The position numbers were made by a program, and so were the translations under genes. From assembly GCA_003345555.1 (NCBI GenBank), contig PRDJ01000010.1, positions 60,001 through 92,000 of the forward strand: DNA of 32,000 nucleotides, in the 5' to 3' direction. The notes beneath the pieces are model-generated. The model worked only from the letters and a program-made list of their open reading frames with translations. It did no database searches and was not told where the DNA came from. Below are positions 9,142-29,025 of this stretch, piece after piece. The stretch's first letter is position 1; each line of letters opens with the position of its first letter. This DNA is from Candidatus Thorarchaeota archaeon. GTDB lineage: Archaea > Asgardarchaeota > Thorarchaeia > Thorarchaeales > Thorarchaeaceae.

Positions 9142-10110
9142 CTACTTCCGCCTTGGTCTTTCCTGTCTTCCTGCCTTGAAGCTTCTGAGAATTGGCTCGA
9201 TAGATATCCCGTGCTTGTTGAGCAGCTTTGCGACTTCATCCAGTGTGGGTTGCCCGTTTTGCGCTCCAATCTTTGTAATCTTGAGAGCAGCTACGGCATT
9301 CGCCATGTGAAGTGCCTGTTCAATCTTCTCCAGTCTCGTCCATGACGTCAAGAAACCTGCGGCAAACGCATCTCCCGCACCGGTCGTGTCTGCAACAGGG
9401 ACGTCAAAGGCCCTTGACGTACAGAACTCAAAACCATCGGATGCTATCGCGCCCTCGCTCCCCATCTTTACAATGACTACGCCCGGAAAGGTTTTTGCCA
9501 AGCCTCGGACTTCACTCTCAGTCGGTTCCACCTTGAAGTACTCTCTGAGTTCGTGTTCATTTACGAAGAGCAGGTCAGTGTGGCGCAATACACTGAAGTA
9601 GTCAATCGTCTCGGCGGTTTTTCCGGGGTCTAGAGAAAGGACCATTCCTTCCGTTGTGGCAATCTCCGCGGCTTTACTGATGGTCATTGGCAGACCGCCC
9701 GCCACGTGTATCGTCCTAGCTCTTGCCAGATAGTCTTCCTCGAGCACATGCTTCTCTAAGAACCTGTTCGCACCGGGCTCAACCATGATTATGCGCTCAT
9801 CATTAGGGGCAGTAGCAATCACAAACACGCCGGTCGGTTGATCCGCCAATACGAGGATTGAATCTGTATCGACTCCGATTCTGGACAGCTCGCGAAGATA
9901 CAACTGGCCATATACGTCATCTCCCACACAGCACACAAGACCGGTCTTTACGCCGAGGCGTGCTGACTGAGCGGCGAAGTTCGCTGCCGAACCACCAAAC
10001 GAGACGTGGCCCTGTTGGCACATCAGGTGTTCGTTCTTTGCTGGAAGCCTTTCGACCTTGAGTAGCACGTCAATGTTCGCGCGTCCCACTGCAACAACTT
10101 CAAGGGACAA
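9142..10110 (-). CDS. PfkB-family carbohydrate/nucleoside kinase
   Basis: GGSAANFA and DTTGAGDAFAAGF PfkB signatures. Confidence 0.92.
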   Translation of the reverse strand: MSLEVVAVGRANIDVLLKVERLPAKNEHLMCQQGHVSFGGSAANFAAQSARLGVKTGLVCCVGDDVYGQLYLRELSRIGVDTDSILVLADQPTGVFVIATAPNDERIIMVEPGANRFLEKHVLEEDYLARARTIHVAGGLPMTISKAAEIATTEGMVLSLDPGKTAETIDYFSVLRHTDLLFVNEHELREYFKVEPTESEVRGLAKTFPGVVIVKMGSEGAIASDGFEFCTSRAFDVPVADTTGAGDAFAAGFLTSWTRLEKIEQALHMANAVAALKITKIGAQNGQPTLDEVAKLLNKHGISIEPILRSFKAGRQERPRRK

Positions 10111-16470: not shown

Positions 16471-16484
16471 CGAATAACTTTAAA
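16471..16484 (+). promoter_or_regulatory. BRE/TATA promoter of tRNA-Gly(TCC)
   Basis: CGAATAAC-TTTAAA about 30 nt upstream of the tRNA. Confidence 0.6.
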
Positions 16485-16513: not shown

Positions 16514-16636
16514 GCGTCTGTAGTCTAGTCACATTAGCTTGAAGACAACCCAACAGGCGGCTAATGAGAGACTAAGGGGCTATGATTGAGCCCTTCCAAG
16601 GCTCGGGCCCGGGTTCGATTCCCGGCAGACGCACCA
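16514..16636 (+). tRNA. tRNA-Gly(TCC) with 48-nt D-loop intron at 14/15 (16528-16575), encoded CCA
   Basis: Acceptor GCGTCTG/CAGACGC, anticodon arm GAGCC CT TCC AA GGCTC, T arm CCGGG TTCGATT CCCGG; intron removal restores D arm GTCT AGGGGCTA TGAT. Confidence 0.92.
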
Positions 16637-16714
16637 CCACCATGATATCATCCACTTCGGACTAGTTCTCAGAGTCTCTCGATGCTCTGGGCTCGGTCAC
16701 GATGAGGTGCTGAA

Positions 16715-18748
16715 ATGAAGTCCCTGAAACACAACGGTATTTACGTCATTCACCCCCCAGAAACCCATGGTCTCGCGATTCGTGCTCGTGGCAGAGAGCT
16801 GACCTTGAATGCGCTTCAAGAAGAGATGGCGGTAGCTTGGGTGAAGAAGCTCGGCACGCCTTACGTCGATGACCCTGTTTTCGCGAAGAACTTCCTCGCA
16901 GACTTCAGCAAGGAACTGGGTATCAAGCCTCCACTGAAGCTTGAAGAAGTCGATTTCACTCCCGTCCTGCGATTCGTCGAGAAGGATCGCCAACGAAAAA
17001 AGAACATGACGAAAGAAGAGAAGAAGGCAGACCTAGAGCGTAGGAAAGCAGAGCGAGACCGGATGAAACAGCTCTACGGCTATGCTACAGTCGATGGCGA
17101 AGCCATGGAGCTCGCGAACTACATGACAGAGCCCTCCGGCATATTTATGGGGCGAGGACAGCACCCCCTCAGAGGTCGCTGGAAGCACGGTGCTCTCGAA
17201 AAAGACATCATCCTGAACCTTGACCGGAGCGCACCGAGACCGAAGGGCGATTGGGGCGAGATTACTTGGGCGCCCGATTGTATGTGGATTGCGAGGTGGA
17301 CTGACAAGCTTACAGGCAATGGAAAGTACATCTGGCTTCACGATTCGACCCCGATAAAGCAGGAACGAGAAGAGGCGAAATTCGACAAGGCCCTCAAGAT
17401 GGAAGCCAAAAGAGAAGAAATCCGTGCTCACATAATGGATGGTCTCCACTCCAATGATCCGAAGCGCAGAGAAGTCGCTGCTGCATGTTATCTGATTGAC
17501 AGGCTAAGCCTGCGAGTCGGGGATGAAAAAGACCCTGACGAAGCCGACACCGTCGGTGCCACTACGCTGAGAGCAGAGCACTTGGCATTCAAGAAAGACT
17601 CTGTCCAGTTCGACTTCTTGGGCAAAGATAGTGTTCCTTGGCACAAGGAGCTGGAGATGCCTGTGGATGTCTACACAGTTTTCAAAGAGCTTCATGATAG
17701 AGCGGTTGAAAGAGTAGATTCCTTCAAAGCCCGTGGGAGCAGCAAGACTGGCGGAGACCCAAAGAAGGCAGCTCAGGTATTTTCGCGTGTGCGTAGCACT
17801 GATGTTAACAAGTTCCTTGGCGAGATAGACCCGGACTTGACAGCCAAGGTATTCCGAACACTTCGTGCTACCGTTACGATTCGGGATGAGCTTGGCAATA
17901 GTGGCATCAGACGCAGCGACATGGACTTCATCAAGCGGACAGCATTCAAGAGGGCAAACCTTGAGGTTGCTCGGGTAATGAACCATACGAAGCAGGCCCC
18001 GAAGGGCTGGGCTGCGACAGCGAAACGCTACGAATCAAGGATCAAGGCCGCCGAAGAACGAGTTGCCAAAGCAAAGAAGCAGCTTGACGAGAAGAAACGC
18101 CGGCTTGCTGATGTGAAAAGAAAGCAGGCACCGGGACTTGCGAGAGCTGAGGAGCTTGTCACGAGACAGAAACAACTGGTCGAGAAATACAAAGACTCTG
18201 TCTCTCGGTGGAGAGAGCGGCGCGACAAGGCAAAGGTTGCTTGGGACAACGCTCGAGACGATAGACAACGTACAAGAGTGAGTAACCGAAAGCGAAAGAG
18301 AACCAAGAAGGAGCGACTTGAGGAAGTGGGAGACCGGGTGGACAATCTGAAGCTCAGGCTGGACAAAGCCGAAGAAGGTCTCGTGAAGGCACGTGAACGC
18401 TACGAGAAGAGCAAGGCTGCCCTAGAGAAGAAGGTGGCTGCGCTTGCTTCATCCAAGCAGAAGTCGGCGGAGCAGATTGGCCGAGTCGAGAAGATCGTGA
18501 ACACCATCAAGGAGCGAGTCAAGAGGGCTGATGCTGCAAGACAGAAACTGCAGGATGACTACCATATCGCAAAGGACACACGGACATGGAACTTGGGTAC
18601 GTCCCTCAAATCCTACATCCATCCTCGAGTAGTGTATGACTGGTGCAGAAAGGTGGATATGGACTGGCGGTCTGTCTATTCAAAGACGCTCCAAAGGAAG
18701 TTCACTTGGGTAGAGCAGCCTCGCTCTGCATCACCCCTGGGGCAATGA
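16715..18748 (+). CDS. DNA topoisomerase IB (eukaryote-like Top1) with very long coiled-coil linker
   Basis: FMGRGQHPLRG, WHD-like WLHDS, LRVGDEK, FLGKDS, KVFRT, MNH and GTSLKSYIHPR (catalytic Tyr634) motifs. Confidence 0.95.
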   Translation: MKSLKHNGIYVIHPPETHGLAIRARGRELTLNALQEEMAVAWVKKLGTPYVDDPVFAKNFLADFSKELGIKPPLKLEEVDFTPVLRFVEKDRQRKKNMTKEEKKADLERRKAERDRMKQLYGYATVDGEAMELANYMTEPSGIFMGRGQHPLRGRWKHGALEKDIILNLDRSAPRPKGDWGEITWAPDCMWIARWTDKLTGNGKYIWLHDSTPIKQEREEAKFDKALKMEAKREEIRAHIMDGLHSNDPKRREVAAACYLIDRLSLRVGDEKDPDEADTVGATTLRAEHLAFKKDSVQFDFLGKDSVPWHKELEMPVDVYTVFKELHDRAVERVDSFKARGSSKTGGDPKKAAQVFSRVRSTDVNKFLGEIDPDLTAKVFRTLRATVTIRDELGNSGIRRSDMDFIKRTAFKRANLEVARVMNHTKQAPKGWAATAKRYESRIKAAEERVAKAKKQLDEKKRRLADVKRKQAPGLARAEELVTRQKQLVEKYKDSVSRWRERRDKAKVAWDNARDDRQRTRVSNRKRKRTKKERLEEVGDRVDNLKLRLDKAEEGLVKARERYEKSKAALEKKVAALASSKQKSAEQIGRVEKIVNTIKERVKRADAARQKLQDDYHIAKDTRTWNLGTSLKSYIHPRVVYDWCRKVDMDWRSVYSKTLQRKFTWVEQPRSASPLGQ

Positions 18749-18915
18749 TGGGCTGGCTCATGTCCGGAATCCGGCTGGCTTGTTGGTCTTGCTGTCTCCT
18801 GAACGAAGCCCATACTGAGAATCTGGAAGCTTCATTACGGTCCGACTCCACGTATAACTGACAGAGTCTGTACTGTCTAGTCTTTATTATGGCTCTGGCT
18901 GTGAGAGTCTGTATC

Positions 18916-19068
18916 ATGCTGAAAGAAGAATGCCCGTATTGCGGAGGCAGACTCATAGAGAAGCACGAGGAAACTAAGGTCGAAAATGGCAAAACAGTTG
19001 TCTTCGTGCACTTCCGCTGTGTGAAATGCGGAAAATGGACAAGGCGGGAACGGATACATCCACCTTGA
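18916..19068 (+). CDS. 50-aa CPxCG-type zinc-ribbon microprotein (absent from the ORF track)
   Basis: MLKEECPYCGGRLIEKHEETKVENGKTVVFVHFRCVKCGKWTRRERIHPP; TATA-like TTTATTA at about 18883; fills the gap between two convergent genes. Confidence 0.7.
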   Translation: MLKEECPYCGGRLIEKHEETKVENGKTVVFVHFRCVKCGKWTRRERIHPP

Positions 19069-19123
19069 CACTGGAAGAGGTCATCTGGCTCGGCTCTCCT
19101 GAGATACGAAATGAGAAGCGGTG

Positions 19124-19828
19124 CTACAGCTTCACCTCTAGTGACTTTCCCGTGTTTCCCGCAAAGACTGAGAGTCTCGAACCAACACGAACCATTGCAA
19201 TGCCGCCAAGGTAAGGCTCGCGGTCGGTCACGACAAGCGGCCTCCCGAGAAGAAATCTCTTGAGGGACATCAGGGAGAGATCGTGAGTGATGTGGATATG
19301 CATCACCGGGTCCGTTGTCGCTATGAGCCGCGATACAGTATCTGAGCACAGTCTTGACTGAAAACTGCCAAACGACTCTATGCCATTACCGAAGAGACCA
19401 CTTGCCCACTTGTTGACGAACTCAGTGACATTCCTTCCATCGGGCTGGAGATTCTCCCATATCTTCTCCTCTGAATACTCTGGCGAGAACAGTGTGTCGA
19501 GAGATTCAATCCCGAGTACTCTCCCGCCTGCATCGTTGAATCCCTTCGCGATGAAGTCGGCAGTCTCTGAACACCTGGGCACGAAGCTCGTGAAGATATG
19601 AGCCGGTCTCTTTACCCTGAGCCGGCGTCCCATCTCAAACGAGGTCTTCCTACCAAGCTCTGTAAGCCCTCCTGAGAGCATCTCTGCATAGTCGGCGAGC
19701 GTGGTGCGATGCGAGTGCCTCACTACAAGAGCAATGGGTGTCCCTGGGTCCATGGAGTTGGTCCACTTGACCAAAGCTCTCGCACTAGATAACCAATCAA
19801 TCGAGTCCCAGTCCATCGATTCTGACAA
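19124..19828 (-). CDS. Histidine phosphatase (phosphoglycerate mutase-like) family protein
   Basis: LVVRHS, GLTELG, SFVPRCSETA and ITHD motifs. Confidence 0.85.
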   Translation of the reverse strand: MSESMDWDSIDWLSSARALVKWTNSMDPGTPIALVVRHSHRTTLADYAEMLSGGLTELGRKTSFEMGRRLRVKRPAHIFTSFVPRCSETADFIAKGFNDAGGRVLGIESLDTLFSPEYSEEKIWENLQPDGRNVTEFVNKWASGLFGNGIESFGSFQSRLCSDTVSRLIATTDPVMHIHITHDLSLMSLKRFLLGRPLVVTDREPYLGGIAMVRVGSRLSVFAGNTGKSLEVKL

Positions 19829-19997
19829 GTTCGTTCACTGTCACCCTAGGAAGTCTCTCTGTTTGACTCACTAGTGTCTTTTCAGCCTTTCAGGGCTATC
19901 GAGCCAAACCAATTCCTTTCAGACTTGAATAGAAGGATGGCGAAGACCGGCAGGTGACTCCCCGTTTGGTTCAGTCTACCGTGAAGAGAATGAGAAA

Positions 19998-20120
19998 TGG
20001 TGCGACCACCGGGACTCGAACCCGGGCCGGATCCGTGGCAGGGATCCATCATAGCCCCTTAGTCAATCGTTAGCTGCCAATTTGGCTGTCTTCATGCTAG
20101 CGATTCTAGACAATGGTCGC
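19998..20120 (-). tRNA. tRNA-Gly(GCC) with 48-nt D-loop intron at 14/15 (20059-20106), encoded CCA
   Basis: Acceptor GCGACCA/TGGTCGC, anticodon arm GATCC CT GCC AC GGATC, T arm CCGGG TTCGAGT CCCGG; intron removal restores GTCT AGGGGCTA TGAT. Confidence 0.92.
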
Positions 20121-20193
20121 AGCAGTTCAGACCGCGGTCCAGTGCGTTAAAAAGCTTGTCGAAGCACAACGCTCTCGGAGAAGAGGTTCGGCA

Positions 20194-28732: not shown

Positions 28733-28920
28733 TACTTACGTGACGGAAGTAATACCGGCATCCTAGACAAGCCCAGTGCTTGACAGTCGCTTGAAAATGA
28801 TTCCCTCAAGCGGTGTTCCGAAAGTGGGATTCTCCGTTTTCGATGAACCGTGCATAATGGCAGGACTTGACGCAACTGCTTGAATAAGACTGGTTCGGTC
28901 CCGTCACTATGCCTGAATGC

Positions 28921-29025
28921 TGGTGGACCGGGCGGGATTTTTGGGCCCGAAGCTGGAAGTCAGTTCCGGAGAACCCGTGACCTCTTCCATGCCAAGGAAG
29001 CGATCTACCACTGATCTACCGGCCC
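28921..29025 (-). tRNA. tRNA-Ala(GGC) with 30-nt T-loop intron at 56/57 (28941-28970), encoded CCA
   Basis: Acceptor GGGCCGG/CCGGTCC with G3-U70, CTTCC TT GGC AT GGAAG; intron removal restores TTCAAAT. Confidence 0.92.

Follow-up and report, generated by a model that had tools for sequence, protein, structure and literature searches.

We analysed a 32,000-nt stretch of the genome of a Candidatus Thorarchaeota archaeon (GenBank assembly GCA_003345555.1, contig PRDJ01000010.1, positions 60,001 to 92,000), referred to below as the window, and found that its genes for tRNA-Gly(TCC) and tRNA-Gly(GCC) each carry a 48-nt insertion in the D-loop between tRNA positions 14 and 15. The insertion lies at 16528..16575 on the plus strand in Gly(TCC) and at 20059..20106 on the minus strand in Gly(GCC). 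Its boundaries, its splice-motif geometry, covariation in its stem and the genes for the splicing enzymes are all present, and both insertions are very probably archaeal tRNA introns of the bulge-helix-bulge (BHB) type, with excision itself predicted from these features. The two introns are homologous, and comparison with related genomes points, with somewhat better than even confidence, to copying of the intron from the GCC gene into the TCC gene.

The pre-tRNA-Gly(TCC) gene spans 16514..16636 (+; 123 nt including an encoded CCA; anticodon 16595-16597), with a 5′ exon at 16514..16527 covering tRNA positions 1-14 and a 3′ exon at 16576..16636 that starts with a D-loop sequence typical of GCC genes. 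The pre-tRNA-Gly(GCC) gene spans 19998..20120 (−; likewise 123 nt with encoded CCA; anticodon 20039-20037), its 5′ exon (20107..20120) again covering positions 1-14 and its 3′ exon lying at 19998..20058. The intron coordinates proposed in an initial annotation, made from the sequence alone, proved exact: removing either intron left a clean 75-nt cloverleaf, which ARAGORN called as tRNA-Gly(TCC) or tRNA-Gly(GCC). That annotation had also anticipated that standard tools would miss or truncate these genes, and this was borne out. In the unspliced sequence ARAGORN missed the TCC gene and truncated the GCC gene, its intron mode miscalled Gly(TCC) as Leu(AAG), and an Rfam scan gave only partial hits to both genes, the one to TCC being a weak transfer-messenger RNA (tmRNA) hit. 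The two genes were the sole TCC and GCC genes detected in a genome estimated to be about 93% complete.

To place the junction, we scanned candidate introns over all positions and lengths, scoring each by splice-motif geometry together with the ARAGORN score, and position 14 with length 48 came out on top for both Gly genes. From this genome alone the junction was ambiguous, as excision at 13/14, 14/15 or 15/16 yielded an identical product. We therefore relied on relatives, which fit BHB geometry in register 14 only. Among 23 intron-bearing Gly genes (G008 was excluded because its contig ends there), register 14 gave no fewer than three out of four central-helix pairs in 23/23, with an average of 9.1 out of 10 stem pairs, and registers 12, 13, 15 and 16 gave three or more central pairs in 0/23. 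In three of these genes (in G015, G017 and G032) the mature tRNA was restored by excision at 14/15 alone. The predicted mature D arm also matched, letter for letter, the D arm of intronless Gly(GCC) orthologs from the same genus and elsewhere. These results assign the junction to 14/15.

The Gly(TCC) intron consists of one bulge base, a 10-bp stem (16529-16538 paired with 16560-16569), a 21-nt loop, a helix strand and two bulge bases. The 5′ half of its splice motif (16522..16528) supplies the helix strand at tRNA positions 9-12, which forms four pairs with 16570-16573, followed by the bulge TAG; the 3′ half (16570..16576) supplies the central helix strand GACT and the bulge AAG. Both bulges are 3 nt long with the exon-intron boundary after the second base, and this geometry was identical across the 23 genes. 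The BHB-like motif described initially thus held for its bulges and cut register, but not in full: the central helix is complete (4/4) in TCC and relaxed in GCC, with three pairs and a U-U, and an exon-side helix (h) was lacking in 23/23 genes, where a single G-U pair is followed by a mismatch. We therefore class the motif as HBh′, not strict hBHBh′. The intron-side helix (h′) was backed by covariation in both length classes of intron at this site. Four two-sided changes occur within the 10-bp stem of the 48-nt set, in line with the compensatory upper-stem changes read from the two copies at the outset, and a set of 30-nt introns from other Thorarchaeota showed 45 two-sided cells, against 12.6 in shuffled and 7-13 in slid controls.

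The genome also encodes two EndA paralogues and RtcB. Aeropyrum EndA is the nearest match to the catalytic paralogue (E 1e-45), and the alignment of the two shows that the Crenarchaea-specific loop (CSL), the K44 equivalent and the catalytic His are all kept, so that a broad-specificity endonuclease and a ligase are both encoded in the host. CSL and K44 enable cleavage of D-loop and relaxed introns, and cleavage of the D-loop intron of Aeropyrum pernix pre-tRNA-Thr has been shown biochemically to depend on both, which the local EndA has (PMC3241643); that case concerns another tRNA in another organism, and cleavage at Gly 14/15 is predicted by analogy. An (αβ)2 EndA with an L1 loop is known from Asgard archaea (PMC5829648). 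In the proposed mechanism, the last six intron bases of the precursor would take the place of the D-stem partner by base-pairing with tRNA positions 9-12, giving the central helix, whose opposite side would be closed by the 10-bp intron stem. The resulting 3-nt bulges would comprise positions 13, 14 and intron base 1 on one strand and the last two intron bases plus G15 on the other. An (αβ)2 endonuclease with the L1/CSL loop would then cut each bulge behind its second base, and ligation of the exons by RtcB would restore the D arm. The known splicing mechanism is unchanged by these introns. They also match the local norm, since we delimited about 26 further introns in the genome (some with approximate boundaries), many of them in the D arm, variable region or T arm.

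That the insertions stay unspliced, in pseudogenes or assembly artefacts, is very improbable. The relaxed motif in GCC would be compatible with it, as would the fact that cleavage and ligation are read from sequence. Against it, the exons are intact, the genes are the only detected source of the two anticodons, and two independent assemblies both contain the TCC intron, its stem preserved.

We next considered how one genome came to carry related introns in two genes. The TCC and GCC introns are identical at 34/48 positions, a slightly higher count than the approximately 31 given at first. Their homology, already proposed then, is well supported, as 15/21 loop bases (binomial p ~4e-5) and 28/42 bases outside the splice signal (p ~1e-7) are identical. 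Similarity on this scale is beyond chance and points to one shared ancestor. Paralogue identity between TCC and GCC introns (31-35/48) is lower than identity among TCC orthologues (40-44/48), which suggests that copying occurred before the split from the sister species. A D-loop typical of GCC genes is found in each of the five TCC genes that carry the intron (5/5, from two lineages), compared with none of the roughly 30 intronless TCC genes in the loci examined, with one exception seen elsewhere. Because the intron-bearing TCC genes have the GCC-type D-loop, gene conversion from GCC to TCC that took some flank along is suggested. We therefore lean towards the intron having been copied from the GCC to the TCC gene by gene conversion through shared flanks, before the split from the sister.

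A less probable explanation for the homology is duplication of a whole gene followed by an anticodon change, or an old 14/15 intron of Thorarchaeota that was lost repeatedly. The exons of the two genes are indeed 61/75 identical and 14/15 introns occur in eight genera, as either scenario would allow. Against this explanation, the GCC gene keeps both a family-wide GCC-type anticodon arm and a conserved convergent position, 48-nt stems resemble 30-nt stems no more than expected by chance (mean 3-6 of 21), and two congeners outside the clade lack the intron in the GCC gene, one of them in both genes. The data already point to confinement of the 48-nt intron to one small clade with intron-free outgroups, a pattern that would speak against it as well.

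Several points nevertheless weigh against GCC-to-TCC copying of a spliced intron. The sister Gly(GCC) lacks the 48-nt intron and holds another of 29 nt near 21/22 (L113, G003:C14, ~9190-9290), so that copying in this direction requires loss or replacement in the sister. The co-conversion signal comes from two lineages only, and the cleavage and ligation steps of the Gly precursors themselves are deduced. What looked in the sister genome like a second copy of a tRNA 3′ end, and hence a possible attachment site, was explained by overlapping contigs that differ at one base.

Sharing of introns between isoacceptors is not unique to Gly, because Thr(CGT) (C10:59771-59879) and Thr(TGT) (C63:11638-11746) in this genome have homologous 36-nt canonical introns that are 26/36 identical. 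Relatives of the Gly introns were absent among the 26 other introns of the genome, where the longest shared word was 7-8 nt. The initial statement that both tRNA-Gly genes carry the intron holds for TCC and GCC but does not extend to a third glycine gene, Gly(CCC), which has no D-loop intron; in the sister species the TCC ortholog has the 48-nt intron and the GCC ortholog does not. This Gly(CCC) gene (C30:12529-12625, −) has a different D-loop, and its T arm contains an insertion of about 23 nt. In one congener (G002, L069, G002:C30:700-1100), Gly(TCC) seems to be missing the usual 5′ part upstream of its anticodon arm and is possibly disrupted or replaced.

To see how widely the site is used, we searched 85 other Thorarchaeota genomes by pattern for insertions at Gly 14/15. 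Insertions of 30 nt were found in 20/85 genomes from seven genera, 18 in GCC genes and 2 in TCC genes and never in both within one genome; as the genomes are incomplete and related, this count is descriptive only. Overall, 14/15 introns were present in 22/86 searched Thorarchaeota genomes from eight genera and apparently comprise three unrelated sequence families. The rarity of position 14/15 was therefore overstated at first, and an intron beginning at nucleotide 15 is moreover listed for tRNA-Leu(GAG) of Atabeyarchaeia-2 in a published supplement (Supp. Data 4; gene begin 271217, intron begin 271231; PMC11291895). The 48-nt type itself is confined: when long introns of this kind were sought across the phylum, they turned up in this genome and its sister only, apart from a single match that does not seem to be a tRNA. 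Known copies are those in both Gly genes here, in Gly(TCC) of the sister species and in Gly(TCC) of one metagenome contig, the last being the one true homolog (L101) in a metagenome pattern scan that also gave one chance match (L102). A viral pattern scan yielded one chance match only. In other Asgard families with a D-loop pattern, the cases checked by eye fit 15/16 or other sites, not 14/15. Coverage by four DNA contig sets was patchy and told nothing about variants of the intron. Some Thorarchaeota Gly(GCC) genes with a 14/15 intron (L121, L122, L126, L128, L135, L137 and L138) have more than this one insertion: several seem to contain further introns, located in the variable region and the T arm, and others a canonical 37/38 intron.

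The invariance of two elements, the loop word TGAAGACA and the terminal GACTAA, had been taken at first as a sign of selection on the intron itself. GACTAA is the 3′ strand of the central helix plus the bulge and is common to the unrelated 30-nt introns (G at −6 in 23/23, C at −4 in 22/23 and A at −2 in 23/23). TGAAGACA lies in the intron loop at 16540..16547 (+) in Gly(TCC) and at 20087..20094 (−) in Gly(GCC), is invariant in the four known copies and is largely unpaired in the predicted fold; its run was not significant on permuting the invariant columns (p 0.06-0.08), and it was absent from the 19 short (30-nt) introns checked. With GACTAA accounted for as the splice signal and no significance for the TGAAGACA run, selection on the intron over and above that signal is unsupported. 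Selection thus appears to act on the fold and the splice signal and not demonstrably on the loop.

It is improbable that the 48-nt intron has a function of its own, either before its excision or afterwards, through its unpaired TGAAGACA, for instance by pairing with TGTCTTCA in the intron of tRNA-Arg(TCT) 13.7 kb away. This tRNA gene (2720-2829, −) has a 32-nt canonical intron at 2790-2759, in which TGTCTTCA (2776-2783, −) is the exact complement of TGAAGACA, with up to 11 pairs (one G-U) possible against the TCC intron. On the corresponding proposal, at equally long odds, the 48-nt intron would be a small functional RNA whose loop pairs with the Arg(TCT) intron loop and so couples the processing or fate of the tRNA precursors. 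Beyond the invariance and exposure of the loop word, TGTCTTCA is found in the Arg(TCT) intron of both genomes with the 48-nt intron, whereas two congeners without the 48-nt intron have a homologous Arg intron that lacks TGTCTTCA, and the chance of such an 8-mer on either strand of 26 shuffled introns (845 nt) was ~0.016, uncorrected for post hoc choice. The complementarity test was itself post hoc, however, and two other intron pairs out of 378 reach 8-9 complementary bases by chance. No compensatory change was seen, the change in the sister's Arg intron breaks a flanking pair, and half of the Arg motif is paired in its own predicted fold. The 8-mer is also frequent genome-wide (165 copies, 98th percentile), and the intron has no Rfam hit and, by eye, no intact C/D or K-turn boxes.

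Other roles and origins for the intron were tried and rejected. A box C/D guide RNA of the tRNA-Trp type found no match in Rfam, and by eye the intron offers a C-like word only, along with D-like words in which the G is lacking and which pair within the stem or splice helix. A nested intron as the origin of the 18 extra loop bases had no fitting motif by eye.

The tRNA-Arg(TCT) gene has C at position 33 instead of the near-universal U in 4/4 genomes of the genus, with U in a relative from another genus; C33 was also seen in Gly(TCC) of two congeners and could be a tolerated variant or a site of C-to-U editing. Elsewhere in the window, tRNA-Ala(GGC) (28920-29025, −) has a 30-nt T-loop intron (28970-28941) with a 4-bp central helix and was missed by ARAGORN. 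On contig C21, tRNA-Asn(GTT) (from 20106 to the contig end) is cut by the end of the contig, and its ortholog in the sister has variable-region and T-arm insertions.

The two Gly genes lie about 3.4 kb apart in convergent orientation, with a topoisomerase IB gene, an unknown open reading frame and a histidine phosphatase gene between them. The DNA topoisomerase IB gene (16715-18748, +) is eukaryote-like, and its placement is kept in one congener, where the Gly genes are likewise convergent around it. An EMG1 gene adjoins Gly(TCC), with nearest relatives in Candidatus Thorarchaeota (79% to 52%), which marks the window as Asgard archaeal DNA. By eye, putative TATA-like boxes lie about 30 nt upstream of each gene, TTTAAA at 16479..16484 (+) for Gly(TCC) and TTTTTAA at 20147..20153 (−) for Gly(GCC). 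A bacterial promoter scan of the region, a type of scan not applicable here, was empty. Near-identical DNA sequencing runs were wetland metagenomes, and the runs listed included no RNA.

Introns have been reported in 92-95% of tRNAs in complete Asgard genomes, with 15/16 introns in several tRNAs including Gly(CCC) of Freyarchaeia (Supp. Data 4; PMC11291895). D-arm insertions are systematically missed there and the same positions have been gained repeatedly (Goswami et al. 2026, 10.64898/2026.10.13.758758). The Gly introns share with these Asgard BHB/HBh′ introns (Valentin-Alvarado 2024, PMC11291895; 10.64898/2026.10.13.758758) the missed D-arm insertions, the relaxed motifs and the (αβ)2 EndA, but both studies focus on other Asgard families, and "Thorarch" is absent from the preprint's main text. 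In Asgard archaea, introns were seldom found to have been copied from one tRNA type to another (1.5% at 80% identity; Goswami et al. 2026, 10.64898/2026.10.13.758758); the Gly pair, at 71% identity and between isoacceptors, would fall below that threshold. A review names many non-canonical intron sites without 14/15, in a list that ends in "etc." (PMC4090602). As that review summarizes them, the transposed introns of Thermoproteales (Fujishima 2010, via PMC4090602) resemble our case in that similar introns sit in different tRNA genes of one genome, which is attributed to copying at the DNA level; the Gly introns differ in being one pair, for the same amino acid, at the same position and with an older divergence. 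Near-identical copies across isotypes or positions, the mark of a Thermoproteales-type family, were not found among the 26 other introns. Our literature search, which left dedicated tRNA-intron databases aside, returned no published record of a recurrent tRNA-Gly 14/15 site in Thorarchaeota.

The Gly introns thus belong to a known class, and what is new is modest: a Gly site that recurs among Thorarchaeota and an intron probably copied from one isoacceptor gene to another. The catalogue of archaeal tRNA introns gains a well-bounded recurrent site at tRNA-Gly 14/15, and the annotation is corrected, as two essential tRNAs had been missed or miscalled. The pair also offers a concrete candidate for intron copying between isoacceptors in which some flank was converted along with the intron, a case relevant to the way in which Asgard archaea acquire tRNA introns.

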